Under the pieces are notes generated by a model. That model did not search any database. It saw nothing but the letters and a program-made list of their open reading frames with translations, and had not been told where the DNA came from. From Anaerolineales bacterium (GTDB taxonomy: Bacteria > Chloroflexota > Anaerolineae > Anaerolineales > Villigracilaceae), in assembly GCA_030680155.1 (NCBI GenBank), contig JAUXWL010000153.1:1-32000 (forward strand): 32,000 nt of DNA, read 5' to 3'. A program made the position numbers and the translations under genes. Within the stretch, counting starts at the first letter, position 1. The number at the start of each line of letters is the position of its first letter. Of the stretch, positions 1 to 9,141 are shown one piece after another.

Positions 1-55
1 GTTTTTCAGGTGGAAGATCGTTCAATTGATATTGAATTTGTTCAGCAAGAGTCAT
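1..55 (-). CDS. First 18 codons of a gene running off the left edge; possibly a small DUF2281-type antitoxin-like protein (tentative)
   Basis: ATG at 55-53 on the minus strand is preceded by GGAGG (complement of 63-67) with a 5-nt spacer. The translation MTLAEQIQYQLNDLPPEK resembles the N-termini of DUF2281-type antitoxins. It is too short for a firm call. Confidence 0.35.
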   Translation of the reverse strand, partial: MTLAEQIQYQLNDLPPEK

Positions 56-91
56 GGCAACCTCCAAAAACAATTATAACGCAACGACATA

Positions 92-229
92 TCACAACTC
101 TCCCTTAAACGCCCCTCCCGATGGTCGCAGCACGGACGGCAGCAACGTCCGCCCAAAGAACGGGCGCAACTCCTCACCCGTAGCGGACTGCGACTCCCGC
201 AACGCCACCAGCCGCGCGAATATCATCAT
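92..229 (-). pseudogene. Decayed remnant of an hsdS 3' end (copy A)
   Basis: Minus-strand translation ARLVALRESQSATGEELRPFFGRTLLPSVLRPSGGAFKGEL parallels the C-terminus of the intact HsdS (ARLTSLRELQSATGEELSALLPSVLDRAFKGEL). It carries two short insertions and has no TRD upstream. Confidence 0.6.
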
Positions 230-233
230 CCGA

Positions 234-326
234 GACCCTAAGGGTTTCCTTGACTGACTCGCAATCCCGCAGGCAAGACTCTCCTGCTTGACATGACGAA
301 GGTTATCGGGACAAACCCTTAAGGTC
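234..326. repeat. About 93-bp element bounded by 14-bp inverted repeats (GACCCTAAGGGTTT / AAACCCTTAAGGTC)
   Basis: The inverted termini are read directly at 234-247 and 313-326. The same terminal motif and the same spacing recur at 10408-10501. Confidence 0.4.
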
Positions 327-327
327 T

Positions 328-429
328 TCATAGTTCTCCCTTAAACGCCCTATGCAGCACGGACGGCAGCAACGCGGACAATTCCTCCCCCGTAACGGAC
401 TGTAACTCCCGCAGCGACGCCAGCCGCAT
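328..429 (-). pseudogene. Remnant of an hsdS 3' end (copy B), last 33 codons plus stop
   Basis: The nucleotide sequence aligns by eye with 2477-2578, matching at roughly nine positions in ten. It translates in frame to MRLASLRELQSVTGEELSALLPSVLHRAFKGEL*. Homology ends exactly at the stop codon and about 100 bp upstream of it. Confidence 0.7.
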
Positions 430-482
430 TATTCTGTTCATGTATATTATGGATGTCTTGGTGCGGAATGGATTATTCATTT

Positions 483-1016
483 TTATCTTGAAAACCAGGA
501 TTTGATACTTATTCCTGTAGACTCATTTACATCAAACAGACACAACACATTTTCTCCAGTTACCTTTAGAGTGCCTGGTTGTACACTTGGGTATAGTTGT
601 AAATATTCGTTTCCATGATAGTTTCCATAAGGGTCAATAACTGGAATTATCGCGATCTTATTTGCAGGTTTAGTTTTGTCAGCAACTCCAATTTCCCAAG
701 GAACCCATTTTGAATCCATAGCATTTCTGGTTGCCAGTACTAAAAAATAATCCATATCTTCTATTTTCTGCTTGATGCGACGCGCCGTTTCTCGGTTAGT
801 AACGCTCGGCATATCCGAGTCAAGCCAATCTACGTAAACTACTATTTGACTTGAATACGCCAAGTAATTAATGAATCCTTCGACTAACTCTTTGTCTTTA
901 TGGCTATGGGATAGAAATATAGAAACTTGGGCACTTGCCTTCGAAAAAGATTTGTATGCTCTAGATTCATTAAGAAACACTCCTCGATAATTTAGTAGTT
1001 CTCTTTCGGTTAGCAT
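483..1016 (-). CDS. TIR-like domain protein (ThsB-like / TIR_2-like), 177 aa
   Basis: Contains VSIFLSHSHKDKELV (the beta-A/BB-loop-type motif of bacterial TIRs). Also contains FLVLATRNAMDSKWVPWEIGVA (the S-x-W-x3-E motif with a candidate catalytic Glu). GGGAG lies 7 nt upstream of the ATG. The region is AT-rich compared with the rest of the window. Confidence 0.7.
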   Translation of the reverse strand: MLTERELLNYRGVFLNESRAYKSFSKASAQVSIFLSHSHKDKELVEGFINYLAYSSQIVVYVDWLDSDMPSVTNRETARRIKQKIEDMDYFLVLATRNAMDSKWVPWEIGVADKTKPANKIAIIPVIDPYGNYHGNEYLQLYPSVQPGTLKVTGENVLCLFDVNESTGISIKSWFSR

Positions 1017-1038
1017 TTATCAGCTCCCATTGCTAAGC

Positions 1039-1488
1039 TTAGAAATACAAGAACAGTATTAGAGCAATAATTGCTATTACCATTCCTCCATGAAACGGAA
1101 ACAAAGTTCTAGATAGCACCGCATTTATCCAAATATTTCTTCGCCCTCGGATTTTCACATCTCGCACTAAAGAAGTATCCATTGAGAAATCTATTTTCTT
1201 TTCTTCTAGCTTTCGGACATGCTCATAAAGGGATCTCAATAGTCTCTCCTGCCAAAGGTAATATCCATCTAAAAACCAGAAAATAATGGCGGGAAACAAT
1301 GTCCATATTGCGGTTACCTTATCTTTATCCTGGAGTGCAACTACAAAAAATGCAGACACAAGCGTAATACTCCACCCCTTAATGAGAAACGAATTGTTTC
1401 CCATTCGTTCGATAGTCGATAGGATCATTTCAAGATGTTTGAATTTCTTTTCCATACCAACCTCTGACTTGGTCAATTTAGACCACAC
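1039..1488 (-). CDS. Small predicted 3-TM membrane protein (possible pore-forming effector)
   Basis: Three hydrophobic segments: WSITLVSAFFVVAL, IWTLFPAIIFWFLDGYY and C-terminal GGMVIAIIALILFLYF. An amphipathic helix (LWQERLLRSLYEHVRKLEE) follows TM2. The more likely start is M12 at 1455, which has GAGG 5 nt upstream. I recognise no family with certainty. Confidence 0.6.
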   Translation of the reverse strand: MWSKLTKSEVGMEKKFKHLEMILSTIERMGNNSFLIKGWSITLVSAFFVVALQDKDKVTAIWTLFPAIIFWFLDGYYLWQERLLRSLYEHVRKLEEKKIDFSMDTSLVRDVKIRGRRNIWINAVLSRTLFPFHGGMVIAIIALILFLYF

Positions 1489-1519
1489 TTTGTATTATAC
1501 ATATCATTTAGTGAAGACC

Positions 1520-2467
1520 TTATCTGTGTTCAAGATGAGCTATGAACCGCTTCCACAAATGTTCGGCTGCTTGTTGTTGCGTAGCCATTCTCTCCTCATG
1601 CATCCCGAAGAAGCCGACATGTAAGCGCAACTCCTCTCCGTTATCTTCCACACCAATGCTTTCATTAATCGAGCTGGTGCCAAGCCTGTTTACTCCTTCA
1701 TTGTAACAAATCGAGTTTGGACCAAAGTTATCTCCCAACCAAATACTGCACTGAGCCTTGATGTCGCCTCGCACATAGATTTTGCTTATAAATTGCAGGC
1801 TAGTCATGTCTTCAATGTCTGTTTGTATGTCTGTGTTATCTCTTTCCAGTTGTTGCAGACCTTGCTTAAAATATTTCTTGATGTACTGGAACGACTCACG
1901 TGCAAACCGATCTTTCTCCAATTGCGTAAATGTCTTCTTTCGCTTCGGCATTGGAATAGAGCCAAAAGATGCATAAGCTGATTCCTGCGTGGCAGATTGA
2001 ACATCCTGAGAAAGAGTTGATTCGGTGGATTTCCCTTTTGCCTTTTCAAGTTTTCGTTCAAGAGTATTGACAATGTTTTCGATGTCATGTTGACGAAGAT
2101 CTCTAAAACCAATAGTTTCAGGAATACCTGGTATTACGGTATCATCCAATCTGATTGGAAGAATATATTCATTAGGATCACTAAACGCACGCGCTTGTAT
2201 ATGCAAGCGCTCGAAATTTGTCCACTTTTTTCGAAGATAATATTCCGAAATAAACATCAGGCAATAGCGGGCTTGCTTTTCGTATACATCTGCTAAATCG
2301 GTTGTCAAATCCTTGCCCCATAAATCGTGTGCTTGATCTTCATCATAGAAATATGTTATCTTTTTGGCGTCAAGTAATCTAACAAATTTCTGTACAATCG
2401 CCCTGTCTTCGCCAGCAAACGATACTACCACGTCATATACAAACTGATTATCATTGTTAGTGGTCAT
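1520..2467 (-). CDS. TIR-domain protein with an uncharacterised ~150-aa C-terminal domain, 315 aa
   Basis: N-terminus reads YDVVVSFAGEDRAIVQKFV ... CLMFISEYYLRKKWTNFERLH, the classical TIR pattern including S-x2-Y-x3-W-x3-E. The strong RBS GAGGAGG abuts the hsdS stop codon (TGAGGAGGAAGTATG). Confidence 0.8.
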   Translation of the reverse strand: MTTNNDNQFVYDVVVSFAGEDRAIVQKFVRLLDAKKITYFYDEDQAHDLWGKDLTTDLADVYEKQARYCLMFISEYYLRKKWTNFERLHIQARAFSDPNEYILPIRLDDTVIPGIPETIGFRDLRQHDIENIVNTLERKLEKAKGKSTESTLSQDVQSATQESAYASFGSIPMPKRKKTFTQLEKDRFARESFQYIKKYFKQGLQQLERDNTDIQTDIEDMTSLQFISKIYVRGDIKAQCSIWLGDNFGPNSICYNEGVNRLGTSSINESIGVEDNGEELRLHVGFFGMHEERMATQQQAAEHLWKRFIAHLEHR

Positions 2468-2476
2468 ACTTCCTCC

Positions 2477-3847
2477 TCATAGTTCACCTTTAAACGCCCT
2501 ATCCAGCACGGACGGTAACAGCGCGGACAACTCCTCTCCCGTAGCGGACTGTAACTCCCGCAGCGACGTCAGCCGCGCTTGGACGCTATCGAGATACGCC
2601 ACGATTCGCCGCTGTTCGTCGAGCGGGGGAACATTTATTTTCACTTTCCGAAAATGGCTAATATTCAAATGATGGCTGGTAGTTCCTTTTTTACCTGAAA
2701 GTAACTGGTCAACCAAAACAGGGGATGACATCAATTGATACATCAGAAAATTAGGGATAATTCTAGATGTGTCTGGGCGCAACATCATCACTCTCTGACC
2801 CAAACTTAATCTATGTGCTCCATCCAGAACAGCACATCGTCCAATATCACCTTCTCGCACAAATACAATATCATCTTTTCTTGGTTCACCACGCCGAATT
2901 CTTTCCAAGAATTCTTCTTCACTTGTTTTCAACATGGTTGAATAATTCATTGTTCCCCATCCAATGTCTTGAGACCGAACACAATGAAATTGGTTGCCGT
3001 CATATCTCGGCGTTGCGTGCAAGTTATCGATTATTGCCTCACAAGACTCTTCAACTGTTCTTTGTGTAGATTTGTCAGGTAAAAAAGTCTTTGATAATAA
3101 ACTTTTCCAAAAAGCATCAATTTCATCAATGCCATCGTTCCGCAGAGACTGCGCTTTTGCAATACGGGCAGCAAGGGCTTCGACTCGCTCCACAATGCGT
3201 GGTAAATCAGACAAATAATCAGGCAAAGTTGGATAATCATTTGTAAATGGTTGCCCATCTATAAGTCGATCTTCATACCATGAAAGAAATTTTGAGATTT
3301 GAATTTGTTCCTTCAAACTTGGGAAACAAAAATTTATGTTTGATAGCCTACTCTGATTCAGGATTGATAAAGTACTAGCAGTAGGAGCGGCAGCCTGAAG
3401 TTCATCTTGTCTCGCGAACAAGCCATAATAAGCAAACTCGGGGTCTATAATTTTATTGAATTTAATACCTGTTATTTGCTGGTTTGCAGAACTTGTTTTT
3501 GATAGTATTCCAACTCTACCGATATGACCAATGCAAGTTATTAAAATCGTCTCCGAGTCAAAAGTTCTTCCTTTCTTCTCACTAATAGCCTCGTTAGTTA
3601 TGCTCTTCTTTGCAGCCGAAAGCCAGCGATTACCGCCGATATCAGCGGGTGTAAACCAATCAATATCTCCATCATAATATCGGCGTTCCTGTGATGGTGG
3701 GGTAGTGCCCGTTGATATTCTTTCGGCAATATCACCAAGTTTTGCAATTTTCCAATTTGACTTATATGAAGTCGCCAATTTAACAGCAACCATCATCGAA
3801 TTGCTAGAAAGCCATCTGTGACGGTCAGGTGCCGAATTGAAATTCAT
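2477..3847 (-). CDS. hsdS: Type I restriction-modification specificity subunit HsdS
   Basis: Two variable target-recognition regions are separated by a central conserved helix (LPRIVERVEALAARIAKAQSLR). The C-terminal conserved helix is QRRIVAYLDSVQARLTSLRELQSATGEEL. There is a 4-bp ATGA overlap with hsdM. Confidence 0.9.
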   Translation of the reverse strand: MNFNSAPDRHRWLSSNSMMVAVKLATSYKSNWKIAKLGDIAERISTGTTPPSQERRYYDGDIDWFTPADIGGNRWLSAAKKSITNEAISEKKGRTFDSETILITCIGHIGRVGILSKTSSANQQITGIKFNKIIDPEFAYYGLFARQDELQAAAPTASTLSILNQSRLSNINFCFPSLKEQIQISKFLSWYEDRLIDGQPFTNDYPTLPDYLSDLPRIVERVEALAARIAKAQSLRNDGIDEIDAFWKSLLSKTFLPDKSTQRTVEESCEAIIDNLHATPRYDGNQFHCVRSQDIGWGTMNYSTMLKTSEEEFLERIRRGEPRKDDIVFVREGDIGRCAVLDGAHRLSLGQRVMMLRPDTSRIIPNFLMYQLMSSPVLVDQLLSGKKGTTSHHLNISHFRKVKINVPPLDEQRRIVAYLDSVQARLTSLRELQSATGEELSALLPSVLDRAFKGEL

Positions 3848-5412
3848 TTTTCCGCCAAAAATTGTTTTATCTCTTCCATAATCAATGAAATCTGCTTCTC
3901 TTTGTTAAGAATGCTCTCCGCCAGTTCATGCGGTGGCAGGTGTGCTAAATCCTCTTTGCCGTTTGGATTCTTGACATCGAGATTGACCGAGAGAAGATTT
4001 TTATTCTCATCATATTTCAAAACATCGCCAACACGCACTCTCCACGCATGTTCGCTTTCCACACGGGCGTCCCACCATTCGATCAACGGCGCAAACTCTT
4101 CGAACTGCATCGGGCGCGTCTTGGAGTAGGTCTTCTGCCCTTCGGGAAGAGTATGCTCATAGAACCAAATATCAGTTGTCGGTTGGGAGCGAGCGAAGAA
4201 AAGCAAATTGGTCTGAATCGAAGTATAAGGCGAGAAGACTCCGTTTGGCAGGCGGACAATCGTATGCAGGTCAAAATTCCGCAGCAGTTGTTCCTTGATC
4301 CGCGCCGAAACGCCGTCGCCGAATAAAAATCCGTTGGGCACCACCACGCCGCAGCGTCCGCCGTGTTTCAGCGAGCGCATCACGAACTGCATGAACAGCA
4401 GCGCGGTCTCGCTGGCGCGCAGCGACTCGGGGAAGTTCAACTGAATGCCCGCCTCCTCCTCGCCGCCGAAGGGCGGGTTGGTCACGATCACATCAAAGCG
4501 GTCTTTCTCCCCGATCTCGTTCAGCGGATTCTTCAACGCGTTATCGCGGCGGATGTTCGGATTCTCGACGCCGTGCAGCAGCAGGTTCATCGTCCCGAGC
4601 AAATACGGCAGCGGCTTCTTCTCCACGCCGTACAACGTCTCGCTCTGCAACTTGATCTGGTCTTTGGAATTCTTCGCCAGCGGTTTGAGATATTCATACG
4701 CCTCGACTAAAAATCCGCCCGTGCCGCACGCGGGATCAAGAACGGTCTCTCCCAGCCGCGGCTTGGTTCTGTCTACGATCAGTTTTACTACGGGACGGGG
4801 TGTGTAGAACTCCCCGCTATCGCCCGCCGCGTCGCGCATCTCCTTCAGCATCGACTCATACAAATGCGCCAGCGTAAAAATCTCATCCTTCGACTGAAAG
4901 TGGATTCCATCCACCAGGTTGACCACGTCCCGCAGCAGATACCCCGAGAGCATACGGCTGTACGTCTCCTTGAAAACCTCCGCCACCTTCAACCGTTCAT
5001 CCGACCCCGAAAGACCGCGCAGCCCAGGCAGCAAATCATTATTGACGAACTTGATCAAATCCTCACCTGTCGCCCCTTCATTCTCATTCGACGCCCAGTC
5101 CCGCCAGCGATACGGCGGCGGAATGATCGGCTTATACTTCTGCCGCGTCGCCTTCGCATCCTCCTCCCGACGAATTTCCAGATCGTCATAACACTTCAAA
5201 AACAAAATCCACGACAACTGCGGCAACCGATCCAAATCCCCATTCAACCCAGCATCCTTCCGCATAATATCCCGCGATGATTTGATAAGCGAAGAGAGCG
5301 ATGCTTTGGTATTGTGTCGCACTTTCTCCCCTAAATTCCTGCTCTTGGAATTTGGGGGAGATGTCCGAAGGACAGAGGGGGCTGGGTTTGAGTTCTTCTT
5401 GGTTTTAGGCAT
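3844..5412 (-). CDS. hsdM: Type I restriction-modification N6-adenine DNA methyltransferase HsdM
   Basis: Motif I is VLDPACGTGGFLV and motif IV is TNPPFGG. The N-terminal region is HsdM_N-like (DIMRKDAGLNGDLDRLPQLSWILFLK). Confidence 0.95.
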   Translation of the reverse strand: MPKTKKNSNPAPSVLRTSPPNSKSRNLGEKVRHNTKASLSSLIKSSRDIMRKDAGLNGDLDRLPQLSWILFLKCYDDLEIRREEDAKATRQKYKPIIPPPYRWRDWASNENEGATGEDLIKFVNNDLLPGLRGLSGSDERLKVAEVFKETYSRMLSGYLLRDVVNLVDGIHFQSKDEIFTLAHLYESMLKEMRDAAGDSGEFYTPRPVVKLIVDRTKPRLGETVLDPACGTGGFLVEAYEYLKPLAKNSKDQIKLQSETLYGVEKKPLPYLLGTMNLLLHGVENPNIRRDNALKNPLNEIGEKDRFDVIVTNPPFGGEEEAGIQLNFPESLRASETALLFMQFVMRSLKHGGRCGVVVPNGFLFGDGVSARIKEQLLRNFDLHTIVRLPNGVFSPYTSIQTNLLFFARSQPTTDIWFYEHTLPEGQKTYSKTRPMQFEEFAPLIEWWDARVESEHAWRVRVGDVLKYDENKNLLSVNLDVKNPNGKEDLAHLPPHELAESILNKEKQISLIMEEIKQFLAEK

Positions 5413-5440
5413 AATTGTTCCGGCAAAGCAAGATGTGTTG

Positions 5441-5923
5441 TTACGTAAATAAGATTACTGCGAAAATAATTGATAGTATTAGAAAAACAATGGATAACGT
5501 GATTAAGAATCCAGATAATAAAGTAGAACTTGATAATCTATCAATACCTTTTAGCGTCTTTTGTTTTTTTGAATGATACACATCTGTATCAGTTTTAAAG
5601 TCTTCCTGCTCAATTCTTATAAGAGCTTTTTCAAATTCCCTAACCCATATCATATTCCTTTTGTGGTGTGCATACATAATAAACAAAAAGATTGAAATGA
5701 CTAGAGCCGCAAAGAAATATAGAACGAGATTCTCCTTTATGTTCTGAATACTATCTAATTTCAAACCCAAAACACCAGTGACTAGCAAGAGCGATAGGGC
5801 TGGGATATTCCAAGACGCACTCGTATGCCATCGCAGCATTTCCCAATACTGTTTGTATCGTTCGAGAGAAATTTGTGTGTCAGGCGTCAGTATTTTCTTT
5901 TGTGGTACGCTTTTTTGAGGCAT
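5441..5923 (-). CDS. Small predicted 3-TM membrane protein inserted between hsdR and hsdM
   Basis: Hydrophobic segments are PALSLLLVTGVLGL, LVLYFFAALVISIFLFIMY and C-terminal LLSGFLITLSIVFLILSIIFAVILF. The helix/TM/TM/amphipathic helix/TM layout matches the ORF at 1039-1488. The gene is very AT-rich, with gaps of 11 and 28 nt to its neighbours. Confidence 0.6.
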   Translation of the reverse strand: MPQKSVPQKKILTPDTQISLERYKQYWEMLRWHTSASWNIPALSLLLVTGVLGLKLDSIQNIKENLVLYFFAALVISIFLFIMYAHHKRNMIWVREFEKALIRIEQEDFKTDTDVYHSKKQKTLKGIDRLSSSTLLSGFLITLSIVFLILSIIFAVILFT

Positions 5924-5934
5924 ATTATTTCATC

Positions 5935-8277
5935 CTACTCATACAAAAACTTCTGCAATTCATCCACAGCCTGTAACATCTTCTCCGCCCCGCCGAACAA
6001 CTGATAAATCTCATACGTCGAGCCATAGCGGTCAAACGGTGAAACCTGTAACACACGCGGCAACTGGTCAAACTCCCCAACTCCATAATCCGCATACTTC
6101 TCCAGCAAGGTCTCCAAAATATCCCTTGCCGCAGGCGTAAACGTATTGAAGAAATTGGCTTTCTTCTGGCGCAGTTTCTCAGCGCGCTCGCGGCGCGTCA
6201 CCAGCGGGGCGTTATATGCCACATGCAAAATCAAATCCAACGCATCGGCATCTTCCTGATGAGTGACACGTGCAAGATGGTCTGGGTCAATGCCACGCGA
6301 GCGTAACTGGTTCAATATCTCAATCCGCTGTTCGGCTTTTGACCAACTTTGCTTCAAATGCTCAGCCGTCAAATTCAAACGGCGAATGTTTTGGGTGACA
6401 TAATCCGTAAACTCTACGGTTTTGAGAATATGTCCATCAGGGTCGAGTTCGAACGCCTGCTCGCCTGCAATGTACACCTGCACATTGTCAAGATAATATT
6501 TGCGCGGCAATTCGCCCAAACGTAATTGAATATCTCGAATTGCCTGTTCATCCGTTGTCTCAATTTCGGGCTCCAGCGTCCCTTCTTCGCTGTCTTCCAC
6601 CTTCGTCTCGTTCCCATCCTTATCAATGACGGATTTCGTCACACGTACAGGGTCGCCGTCGAATGCGGAATCATAGAACAATTGCGTTGCGCCTACATAA
6701 TCAATGATCGTGAACCAGAACTTGTTATGCTCCTCCGAAACCCGCGTCCCGCGCCCGATGATCTGCTTGAAATCAACGATTGAATTAATCGGCTTGAACA
6801 GAACGATATTGCGGCAGGTTGGCGCATCCACACCTGTGGTCAGCATCTGGGAAGTGGTGAGAATAACAGGCGTTTCTTTCTCAGGATCTTGGAAATTATC
6901 CAAGTGTCCGCGTCCAACAGCTTGTTCATCACTGACAACTCGTGCCACATAATGCACGTGAATTTTCGATAAATCGGCATTCAGGTTATTTAATGCCTTG
7001 CGCATGTCTAAAGCGTGTTCCTGATCTACACAGAAGACAATCGTCTTATCAAAGCGGTTGGTGCGTTTCAGATATTCCGTCAGATGCTTTGCAACTACTT
7101 CTGTGCGTGAAAGCAAAGACACCAGCCGCTCGAAGTCTTTTGTCCCATACAGATCAGGCGGAATCTCACGCCCGAAACGGTCAAGCACACCAGGATCAAT
7201 TTGCAAGCCGCTCGCATCAACATCAGGAATCACGCGGTATACGCGATATGGTGCAAGAAAACCATCTTCAATGCCCTGCCGCAGGCTGTAGGTGTAGATC
7301 GGCTCGCCAAAGTAGTTATATGTATCTACATTGTCATCCCGCTTGGGAGTCGCTGTCATGCCGATTTGGGCAGCAGAGTTGAAGTAATCCAAAATCTTGC
7401 GCCAACTGCCCGCTTCATTTGCTGAGCCGCGATGGCATTCGTCCACGATGACCAGATCAAAGAAGTCACGCGGATATTTTTCATACAGATTTTCACCTGT
7501 GACTGGGTTCGCCAACGATTGATACAGAGCAAAATACACTTCACGGCTTTTAACTGCCTTGCCCTGAATTTTGTGCAACGCCTGCCCCATTGGGGAGAAG
7601 GTGCGATCTTTTGCCTGATCAATCAGCACATTGCGGTCAGCCAGATACAAAATGCGATTCTTGCGTTTGGATTTCCACAATCGCCATGCAATTTGAAATG
7701 CAACAAAGGTCTTGCCCGTTCCTGTTGCCATCGTGAGCAGGATGCGGTTTTGTCCTTCCAATACGGCATTTACCGTTTTGTTGATCGCCACTTGCTGGTA
7801 ATAGCGTGGCGACTTCCCGCCCACTTCTTCCCAATATTGAGACAATGAATCAGTTTCATCTTTTTTATCTTCAAACTTGAACGTACCTTTCAATCTCCCC
7901 CACAATTCATCAGGGGAAGGAAATGCATCGAGGTCTCTTTCGATGCCCGTGATGAAATCATGTTCAATGATCCCCTTGCCGTTGCTGGCATAAGCGAATT
8001 TCAACCCCATCATTTCCGCGTATTGAATTGCCTGTTGAAGACCTTTTGCAGGATGGGCATATTCCGCTTTCGCCTCCACCACCGCAATTGGGATGTTCTG
8101 CCGAATGAATAACGTGTAATCAGGGCGCAAGCCTTCCTTGCGGGTGTGCCTGTCGCCAATGGGCACGATTCGTCCGGGCGTCAAGACCATCTGTTCAGTG
8201 ATGTGATCATCTTCCCAACCAGCGGCATGTAATTTCGGGACTATGTACGTTCTGCAAGTATCGGCTTCTGTTGGCAT
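5935..8277 (-). CDS. hsdR: Type I restriction enzyme R subunit HsdR (EcoEI-like C-terminus)
   Basis: N-terminal nuclease region includes IAVVEAKA. Helicase motifs are PRYYQQVAI, MATGTGKT, VIVDECHRG and GMTATPKR. The C-terminus is EcoEI_R_C-like. The ORF track starts at a TTG at 8298; I prefer the ATG at 8277 (MPTEADTCR...) with GGGAG 4 nt upstream. Confidence 0.9.
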   Translation of the reverse strand: MPTEADTCRTYIVPKLHAAGWEDDHITEQMVLTPGRIVPIGDRHTRKEGLRPDYTLFIRQNIPIAVVEAKAEYAHPAKGLQQAIQYAEMMGLKFAYASNGKGIIEHDFITGIERDLDAFPSPDELWGRLKGTFKFEDKKDETDSLSQYWEEVGGKSPRYYQQVAINKTVNAVLEGQNRILLTMATGTGKTFVAFQIAWRLWKSKRKNRILYLADRNVLIDQAKDRTFSPMGQALHKIQGKAVKSREVYFALYQSLANPVTGENLYEKYPRDFFDLVIVDECHRGSANEAGSWRKILDYFNSAAQIGMTATPKRDDNVDTYNYFGEPIYTYSLRQGIEDGFLAPYRVYRVIPDVDASGLQIDPGVLDRFGREIPPDLYGTKDFERLVSLLSRTEVVAKHLTEYLKRTNRFDKTIVFCVDQEHALDMRKALNNLNADLSKIHVHYVARVVSDEQAVGRGHLDNFQDPEKETPVILTTSQMLTTGVDAPTCRNIVLFKPINSIVDFKQIIGRGTRVSEEHNKFWFTIIDYVGATQLFYDSAFDGDPVRVTKSVIDKDGNETKVEDSEEGTLEPEIETTDEQAIRDIQLRLGELPRKYYLDNVQVYIAGEQAFELDPDGHILKTVEFTDYVTQNIRRLNLTAEHLKQSWSKAEQRIEILNQLRSRGIDPDHLARVTHQEDADALDLILHVAYNAPLVTRRERAEKLRQKKANFFNTFTPAARDILETLLEKYADYGVGEFDQLPRVLQVSPFDRYGSTYEIYQLFGGAEKMLQAVDELQKFLYE

Positions 8278-8372
8278 GGGTCTCCCAATTCCCCTCAATT
8301 TTACCCGAACATTTCCCGCCTCCCCGTCAGGGCTCTGTAAGGGCTTGTTCAGCCCCCGCCTGTTCGTTCCCT

Positions 8373-8427: not shown

Positions 8428-9141
8428 ATGACCGACCAAAAACCGAACTTTTTGCGTGTGACCGCCGCCTGGGGCGTGCATCTTTTCACTGCCACGGGCG
8501 CGATCTGGGGCTTGCTGGCGATCCTCGCCATTTTCGAAGAAGACTACCGCATGATGATCGTGTGGATGATCGTCGCCATGCTGGTGGACGGCTTCGACGG
8601 CATGTTGGCGCGCTGGGCGGACGTGAAAAAATACGCGAGCGGTCTCGACGGCGCACTGCTCGACAACATTCTGGATTATCTCAACTACGTGCTGGTGCCC
8701 GTCATCTTCATCGTCAAAACCGACTATCTACCTGCGCCTGTCAAATTCTTCACCGCATGTCTGATCTTGCTCACTTCGGCGTATCAATTCACGCAGACCG
8801 ATGCCAAGACCGACGACCACCACTTCAAGGGCTTCCCGTCCTATTGGAATGTCGCCGCCTTGTACATGCTGTTGATGAACCTGCCGCCGTGGGTCAACTT
8901 TGGCTTTCTGATGTTGTTCAACATCATGGTCTTCATCCCCGTCAAATACATTTACCCGAGCCGTAATAATACCCTGCGCGGATTAACTCTCGTGCTTACT
9001 TATCTTTATGGAGCCATCGGTGTGTGGGGCTTGCTGCAATATCCCAATCATCCCCAATGGTTTCTTTGGGCTTCGCTCGCTTATGTGATTTATTATCTTG
9101 CGCTCAGTTTGATACCCAAACATAACGCCCATGCGCATTGA
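8428..9141 (+). CDS. pcs: Phosphatidylcholine synthase-like CDP-alcohol phosphatidyltransferase
   Basis: The CDP-alcohol motif is DGFDGMLARWADVKKYASGLDGALLDNILD. There is overall colinear similarity to rhizobial Pcs as I recall it: VHLFTATG, KTDDHHFKGFPSYWN and FIPVKYIYPSR. An AGAGGA RBS precedes the start. Confidence 0.75.
   Translation: MTDQKPNFLRVTAAWGVHLFTATGAIWGLLAILAIFEEDYRMMIVWMIVAMLVDGFDGMLARWADVKKYASGLDGALLDNILDYLNYVLVPVIFIVKTDYLPAPVKFFTACLILLTSAYQFTQTDAKTDDHHFKGFPSYWNVAALYMLLMNLPPWVNFGFLMLFNIMVFIPVKYIYPSRNNTLRGLTLVLTYLYGAIGVWGLLQYPNHPQWFLWASLAYVIYYLALSLIPKHNAHAH

Follow-up and report, generated by a model that had tools for sequence, protein, structure and literature searches.

A three-gene cassette directly behind hsdS

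We analyzed a stretch of 32,000 nucleotides (nt) from an Anaerolineales bacterium (contig JAUXWL010000153.1, positions 1 to 32,000; hereafter the window). At its left end, behind a type I restriction-modification (R-M) operon, lies a cassette of three genes that is very likely a type V Thoeris defence system, in which one ThsF gene is flanked by two ThsB genes (thsB-1, thsF, thsB-2). In the left 8.3 kb every gene is encoded on the minus strand, and in the direction of transcription the order is hsdR, an open reading frame (ORF) for a membrane protein of 160 amino acids (aa), hsdM, hsdS, gene A, gene B, gene C and two short ORFs. The cassette itself consists of:

2467..1520, minus strand: gene A (thsB-1), TIR protein of 315 aa
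1455..1039, minus strand: gene B (thsF), three-helix membrane protein of 138 aa
1016..483, minus strand: gene C (thsB-2), ThsB-type TIR protein of 177 aa

A preliminary description of this DNA had reported three co-oriented genes that begin 9 nt past hsdS and are separated by gaps of 22 to 64 nt. This layout was confirmed. The stop codon of hsdS occupies 2479..2477, gene A starts 9 nt further on, and the junction reads TGAGGAGGAAGTATG, exactly as written there. The gaps measure 64 nt between genes A and B and 22 nt between genes B and C, with the ATG at 1455 as the start of gene B. Hence, the cassette is coupled to hsdS, as had been proposed, in the physical sense of a 9-nt gap on one strand. 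An independent Logan contig of 2,122 nt (L095) is 100% identical to window positions 398-2519 and carries the trio intact. The start of gene B deserves a comment, since the ORF list gives a GTG at 1488, which would yield 149 aa. Homologues of gene B measure 136-139 aa, a GAGG sits 5 nt 5' of the ATG at 1455, and an independent gene call on the identical contig returned 138 aa. We therefore place the start at the ATG. The alignment and the structure model of gene B described below were made with 1039-1458 and include one extra N-terminal residue.

The GC content is 0.37-0.42 over positions 500-3500, which comprise the cassette and hsdS, versus 0.52-0.60 in most of the window. The cassette is thus AT-rich, and it is also flanked by repeats of the hsdS end, as the preliminary description had claimed; the repeat copies are treated in the last section.

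The membrane protein and its TIR neighbors

Thoeris types V-XI were defined by Yirmiya et al. (bioRxiv 10.64898/2025.12.03.692087, December 2025). In type V a TIR protein is paired with an effector with three transmembrane (TM) helices, the "DUF2270" protein ThsF. Table S2 of the same preprint lists a TIR gene of Bacillus thuringiensis DAR 81934 and its neighbor as a type V system that tested positive for defence, and for this system the text reports 3' cyclic ADP-ribose (3'cADPR) formed upon infection. We recovered this TIR protein at 100% identity (P0271) on contig L093, where a gene for 141 aa (L093:3773-4195) lies 14 nt 3' of it. Gene B is 43% identical to this 141-aa protein over the full length (BLASTP, E 2e-36), and the comparison with the gene B family profile gave an hhalign probability of 100% (E 5e-47). 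Judged by these alignments, gene B is clearly homologous to the validated type V effector, ThsF.

The preliminary description had expected the middle gene to encode about 140-150 aa with three hydrophobic helices and one amphipathic helix. The protein of 138 aa comes close to this length, and its AlphaFold2 (AF2) model, built with 25 homologues, is confident (predicted local distance difference test (pLDDT) 91.6, predicted template modeling score (pTM) 0.82). Long helices span residues 2-44, 54-83 and 119-138, with short elements in addition, which fits three hydrophobic helices and an amphipathic N-terminal helix. In a Kyte-Doolittle analysis (19-residue window) the value exceeded 1.6 for the first and third helices only, so that the second is weakly supported by hydropathy. 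Model and hydropathy taken together, gene B has three membrane-spanning helices, the number reported for ThsF. The motifs KHLE (residue 6), IKGW (25), FWFLDGYY (59), QERLLRSLY (69) and IDFSMDT (88) are conserved in the family, and the face predicted to be cytoplasmic has conserved K, R, E and D positions that would suit positive pockets between protomers.

Gene B had no Pfam match at threshold and no NCBIfam match, and a Foldseek search of its model against the PDB returned nothing with E <1. It does match the PADLOC candidate family PDC-M50A (1e-44), as does the validated ThsF of B. thuringiensis (1.8e-48), and typical partner TIR proteins of ThsF match PDC-M50B (1e-46 to 1e-65). The PADLOC candidate PDC-M50 of 2023 is therefore the same kind of module as type V Thoeris. 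A relationship to SLATT proteins, which the preliminary description had brought up, was rejected: no Pfam SLATT match was found, and DUF4231 was touched by one of the 25 homologues with an E value of 0.61. Domain scans of the three cassette proteins and the 160-aa ORF, with hsdM and hsdR left unscanned, found no SIR2, SLOG or Macro domain, which agrees with the proposed membrane effector free of such domains.

Both outer genes encode TIR-domain proteins by matches far beyond chance. Gene A matches Pfam TIR_2 over residues 13-127 (2.4e-14). Its TIR part also matches the PADLOC single-gene candidate PDC-S66 (9.3e-15), and its C-terminal half (139-313) corresponds to the C-terminal part of the PADLOC ThsB model PDLC00420 (1.9e-26). 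Precomputed annotations give PF13676:TIR_2 plus PF27176:Y4lF for the identical L095 protein and for the orthologues on L087 and L096. A sequence search of the PDB with gene A returned TIR matches only, confined to residues 9-118, and a single-sequence structure model was unusable (pLDDT 34). Gene C matches Pfam TIR_2 (3.9e-12), ThsB_TIR (1.1e-6) and the PADLOC ThsB model PDLC00436 (1.8e-51). It shares 50% identity with TIR1 of the type III Thoeris system of Pseudomonas aeruginosa L0872 and 36% with the Bacillus sp. 1NLA3E type V TIR, and it groups in one TIR clade with a type V TIR for which synthesis of 3'cADPR has been reported. Among solved structures, 8BTN is the nearest in sequence (E 4.9e-19).

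The outer proteins had been described as TIR proteins with the catalytic-Glu motif. Indeed, both carry the W-x3-E motif, whose Glu (E86 in gene A, E108 in gene C) we take to be the catalytic residue. We aligned both proteins with seven TIR domains of Thoeris types I, III, IV and V and of a tested "4TM SLOG" operon (Table S1, Yirmiya et al.). Only two columns were invariant, the beta-A Ser and the Glu of W-x3-E, and these are occupied by S16 and E86 in gene A and by S36 and E108 in gene C.

The middle gene belongs to a very large family. An exhaustive profile search returned 5,622 representative clusters (defined at 50% identity) at E ≤ 1e-3 and 744 at E ≤ 1e-30. In a species-level genome collection at least 576 loci were found, spread over many bacterial phyla and including some contigs of archaeal metagenome-assembled genomes; the neighborhood counts given here cover the 80 loci that were fetched. 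A TIR gene lay on the same strand within 3 kb of ThsF in 61/80 loci. It stood directly downstream of ThsF in 50 and directly upstream in eight of the 80, and two or more TIR genes were present in 20/80. The trio recurs elsewhere, mostly without a type I R-M system nearby (hsd genes within 7 kb in 5/80 ThsF loci). TIR domains listed as "DUF2270 - Type V" in Table S1 have their best matches (34-85% identity) among the TIR genes of ThsF loci, mostly ThsF-adjacent ones. Two of the listed genes, IMG 2517867516 and 2517867518, both carry this label, and from their numbers, which leave one between them, they appear to flank a single effector gene, the same sandwich as in the window.

In some members the ThsF module is part of a larger protein. 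P0131 has a SLOG domain (LD_cluster2) N-terminal to the module, P0136 looks alike by eye but has no Pfam match, and in P0176 an 8xMP domain is fused to it. The fusions place the ThsF module downstream of a nucleotide sensor, and judging from these architectures other sensors, too, seem to use the module as their output. They also bear on a reading with reversed roles, in which the TIR proteins would be the killing NADase effectors and the membrane protein a sensor, an anchor or an immunity factor. TIR domains do deplete NAD+ as effectors in CBASS, Pycsar, TIR-pAgo and AVAST contexts, and ThsF has no recognizable ligand-binding domain (Pfam; Foldseek against the PDB). However, the SLOG-ThsF fusions have the TM module downstream of the sensor, and in the homologous B. 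thuringiensis system 3'cADPR added to the medium is toxic to system-bearing cells, and the 3'cADPR sponge Tad1 reduces defence (10.64898/2025.12.03.692087). We consider such a reversal very improbable and regard ThsF as the effector of the cassette.

Several further arrangements of ThsF-family genes were seen. On L048, L054 and L060-L062 (about 4200-7400) they stand inside a layout like that of type III Thoeris, in the order gene C-like TIR, TIR of about 380-400 aa, ORF of 206-243 aa, TIR of about 160-185 aa and ThsF. The 206-243-aa ORF was read as SLOG-like by eye, without a domain scan, and on L054 a TIR fused to a SIR2-like domain comes after ThsF. This layout suggests that several effectors share one set of TIR proteins. 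Two plasmids carry a ThsF-family gene beside a TIR gene: a 5.3 kb plasmid of Psychrobacter (L084, 2058-2510; PDC-M50A 1.6e-24) and a 13.5 kb plasmid of Ligilactobacillus salivarius (L085, 3860-4285; PDC-M50A 1.4e-48). Both genes are annotated as "hypothetical protein", and thus type V Thoeris occurs on plasmids, unannotated in RefSeq-derived records. Among the other plasmid loci first obtained from type V TIR matches, the neighbors were SIR2 or Macro genes, and no bona fide DUF2270 protein was found.

Probable assignment to type V Thoeris and a proposed model of its action

The preliminary description had seen a Thoeris-like module in which TIR signaling acts on a bare membrane effector, and had called it a candidate for an undescribed system. 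The homology to ThsF supports the first part. The second was not upheld, since the middle gene is homologous to ThsF of type V Thoeris and also belongs to PDC-M50A; a match of the trio to an already named system, which the preliminary description itself had listed as speaking against its proposal, is thus what was found. The description is right about function and wrong about novelty. In the literature searched, type V Thoeris is described only in one preprint, and in PADLOC it figures only as a candidate; a literature search for PDC-M50, 8xMP, ThcB4 and Y4lF yielded nothing relevant.

The cassette shares with the B. thuringiensis system a small membrane effector of three helices, homologous from end to end and lacking a separate sensor domain, adjoining ThsB-type TIR genes that retain the catalytic Glu (here two, on the same strand) and a setting among other defence genes. 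It differs in having two ThsB genes that flank thsF, of which one encodes a C-terminal domain of the Y4lF type, in TIR proteins that belong to other clades, in its position directly behind hsdS, and in its source, which judging from its nearest homologues is probably Chloroflexota/Anaerolineae. Of the two components of PDC-M50 in PADLOC-DB v2, a small TM protein (A) and a TIR protein (B), the window has the first in gene B, while its TIR proteins match generic ThsB models instead of the second. Types I and II have in common with it ThsB-type TIR proteins as signal generators, often several per locus, and the logic of abortive infection, but their effectors are ThsA (SIR2-SLOG) and the Macro-TM protein ThsC, whereas the effector in the window is a bare membrane protein. 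The type III system of P. aeruginosa L0872 (several TIR proteins plus SLOG) includes the TIR1 protein to which gene C is 50% identical, but the window cassette encodes no SLOG protein. Type VII, finally, likewise combines a TIR protein with a small membrane effector and a signal of the cADPR type; its effector, the SLATT protein ThsH, is of another family, and no SLATT homology was detected in gene B.

Several observations weigh against the assignment to type V. Pfam PF10028 (DUF2270), the family after which the effector is labeled, did not match gene B at E ≤ 1. Eight of the 25 homologues reached it below threshold (about 14-16 bits versus a cutoff of 25), and these matches span TM1-TM2 only (profile positions 23-83 of 184). 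However, the validated B. thuringiensis ThsF has no precomputed Pfam match either, and the DUF2270 label is therefore not usable for deciding membership at the sensitivity of HMMER. PDC-M50B, the commonest partner TIR family, is matched by neither gene A nor gene C, and the part of Table S1 considered here holds no gene A-like TIR. Thirteen loci with complete flanks carry a ThsF-like gene with no detectable same-strand TIR gene within 3 kb; together with six loci cut by contig ends they make up the 19/80 loci without TIR, and their neighbors are Macro, SLOG, DNA methylase or unrelated genes. Contig L096 encodes a TIR-Y4lF paralogue of gene A (4936-5886) that has no ThsF next to it, so that gene A could act alone. 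Furthermore, one of the two type V systems given exogenous 3'cADPR was not triggered (10.64898/2025.12.03.692087), and the identity of the signal in the window is correspondingly less than certain.

The paralogue on L096 leads to the question whether gene A belongs to the system at all. Only thsF and thsB-2 might form a minimal type V pair, and gene A might be a separate single-gene TIR defence, for example one that depletes NAD+ and has its own sensor. The match of its TIR part to the single-gene family PDC-S66 would agree with this, as would the commonest gene order, ThsF followed by TIR, in contrast to the few loci with a TIR gene directly upstream. However, an orthologue of gene A directly precedes ThsF on L087-L092, with a gap of 26 nt, the A-then-B pair recurs on L096, in a cassette 76% identical in nucleotide sequence, and L095 carries all three genes. 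The validated B. thuringiensis system is itself ordered TIR then ThsF, the C-terminal domain of gene A matches a PADLOC ThsB model, and multiple ThsB genes per locus are a reported feature of Thoeris. A separate gene A is hence improbable to us, and we retain the type V system with two ThsB genes. With regard to gene C, all six contigs shown for the 92%-identical ThsF P0001 (L087-L092) end about 183 nt past its stop codon. These contig ends point to a repeat or polymorphic site right there, at the place that gene C takes in the window.

A model of how such a system would act can be drawn from these homologies. Upon infection, one or both TIR proteins would sense a phage cue, likely through their C-terminal parts (the Y4lF-type domain in ThsB-1, a short stretch in ThsB-2), and two ThsB proteins would probably broaden the range of phages sensed. 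The TIR domains, with the Glu residues E86 and E108, would then make an isomer of cyclic ADP-ribose from NAD+, with 3'cADPR as the most likely product. This signal might bind the cytoplasmic face of ThsF, which is predicted to comprise the N-terminal amphipathic helix (KHLE...R), the QERxxRxLY helix and the DFSMDT loop. ThsF of B. thuringiensis was modeled by AlphaFold 3 (AF3) as a heptameric ring with basic pockets (10.64898/2025.12.03.692087), and the ThsF of the window may likewise form a homo-oligomeric ring of three-TM protomers that disrupts the membrane upon binding. The outcome would be growth arrest or cell death before the phage cycle is complete.

The restriction operon and repeats of the hsdS 3' end

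Upstream of the cassette the following genes make up the restriction operon:

8298..5935, minus strand: hsdR, ORF of 787 aa, assigned by position, size and matches to hsdR-like ORFs of other loci
5923..5441, minus strand: predicted membrane protein of 160 aa between hsdR and hsdM
5412..3844, minus strand: hsdM, assigned by position and homology to hsdM genes of other loci
3847..2477, minus strand: hsdS, type I R-M specificity subunit, Pfam Methylase_S in two stretches (1.4e-39)

In phmmer searches hsdM matched N6_Mtase/HsdM-type genes on L012, L024, L044, L068 and L069, and the orthologous position on L096 holds HsdM_N/N6_Mtase; hsdR matched ORFs on L012 and L044. The cassette genes, hsdS, hsdM, hsdR and the 160-aa ORF are the only ORFs of at least 150 aa within positions 1-8,300, and the genes past 8.4 kb serve housekeeping roles, lipid metabolism and molybdopterin dehydrogenases among them. 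The 160-aa ORF has a weak, full-length, sub-threshold match to Pfam 8xMP (E 3.9e-4, 20.7 bits versus a cutoff of 30). It had no PADLOC or NCBIfam match and no plasmid homologue. As a relative of ThsF it was rejected, given an hhalign probability of 3.6% and no significant BLASTP match.

In the five ThsF loci mentioned above, the type I hsd genes within 7 kb share the strand of ThsF, and on L044 and L068 thsF follows hsdS directly, as the cassette does in the window. On L096 hsdM-hsdS lies about 7.6 kb upstream on the same strand. The association between ThsF and hsd is thus recurrent, not obligatory. On the minus strand between hsdS and gene A no terminator-like site was found, in a scan of little weight; promoter and terminator scans as a whole returned sites no commoner than in shuffled sequence and were uninformative. 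The cassette is probably co-transcribed with the R-M operon. A known case of an abortive-infection gene in such a place is PrrC-EcoprrI, in which a nuclease is encoded inside a type Ic R-M operon and the R-M enzyme physically masks PrrC. In both cases an abortive-infection module shares the strand of a type I hsd operon and lies within it or behind it. They differ in that masking of the effector by Hsd proteins belongs to PrrC, while the link to hsd in the window is positional.

Repeat search, blastn and alignment identified three copies of the hsdS 3' end in the window. They are listed here with the two short ORFs in which the second and third lie:

2474..2576, minus strand: copy 1, genuine 3' end of hsdS, 103 nt with the last 33 codons and the stop codon
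325..427, minus strand: copy 2, hsdS 3'-end remnant, 89% identical
480..328, minus strand: short ORF of 50 aa with hsdS-like C-terminus, its tail formed by copy 2
113..215, minus strand: copy 3, remnant, 60% identical, with in-frame insertions of 15 and 9 nt
331..92, minus strand: short ORF of 79 aa with hsdS-like C-terminus, its tail formed by copy 3

The cassette lies exactly between copies 1 and 2. Since the identity of L095 with the window spans 398-2519, its assembly breaks inside both of these repeats. Beyond the third remnant, another minus-strand gene, starting at 55, is cut by the left end of the window.

On L096 hsdM-hsdS is followed by five copies in the same orientation (2264-2400, 3481-3610, 4784-4943, 7358-7448 and 8454-8573). 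The blocks that they separate hold a 331-aa gene (block 1), a 230-aa gene and a GGACT-domain gene (block 2), TIR-Y4lF and two more ORFs (block 3), an AbiJ-like gene (block 4), and a 100-aa gene, TIR-Y4lF and ThsF (block 5). The eight copies from the window and L096 all align up to the stop codon, with the frame kept and indels in multiples of three, and they use differing stop codons.

Metagenomes were scanned with a core of 21 nt taken from the repeat; more than 120 contigs matched, and 80 of these were fetched (L097-L176). They carry 216 copies, with two to eight copies on 60 contigs, and mixed orientation was seen on none of the 80. The remnants consist of the last 30-55 hsdS codons plus the stop, at a median gap of 564 nt between copies, and 155 of the 162 copies whose 3' part is intact retain the in-frame stop. 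Only the first copy of an array was seen as the end of a full-length hsdS (seven cases), and among the 138 later copies none is preceded by an in-frame stretch that reaches 300 codons. The cargo between the copies is very diverse (183 ORFs in 138 clusters). TIR is its commonest Pfam domain, and several PADLOC candidate families were matched. Some ORFs carry domains of a housekeeping kind (GAF, response regulator, ABC transporter) and may belong to the flanking chromosome instead of the cargo. The repeats are absent from the other hsd-linked ThsF loci L044, L012, L069 and L024, and the arrays are therefore specific to this lineage and not general to hsd-linked Thoeris. An attC-like fold of the repeat was rejected (z-scores +0.8 and +0.9).

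A tentative idea, which we hold to be possible but rather doubtful, is that the Thoeris cassette is one unit of an undescribed cassette-collecting platform, in which the conserved final 30-55 codons of hsdS would serve this environmental lineage as a homology arm that can be carried along. Successive rounds of homologous recombination would pile up varied, partly defence-related cargo behind an intact hsdS. The result would be a polar array in one orientation (hsdS, cargo, repeat, cargo, repeat), with its cargo probably expressed as part of the hsd operon. Such a platform would resemble an integron in outcome and not in mechanism, as there is no attC-like fold and no integrase nearby. Apparently, hsdS-end arrays are a widespread and undescribed way to stack defence genes behind restriction operons.

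The cassette itself adds a variant of type V Thoeris with two ThsB proteins and a TIR-Y4lF sensor, and its value is modest. The ThsF family is very large, yet missed by Pfam at threshold and present in PADLOC v2 only as the candidate PDC-M50, and a dedicated ThsF profile could improve the annotation of such loci. The repeat arrays, if upheld, matter more than the cassette. They would account for the movement of modules like type V Thoeris from one type I R-M locus to another, and they would represent a new recombination-based route by which these loci gather and exchange defence genes. If so, the many unannotated cassettes in the arrays would be a practical hunting ground for new defence genes.

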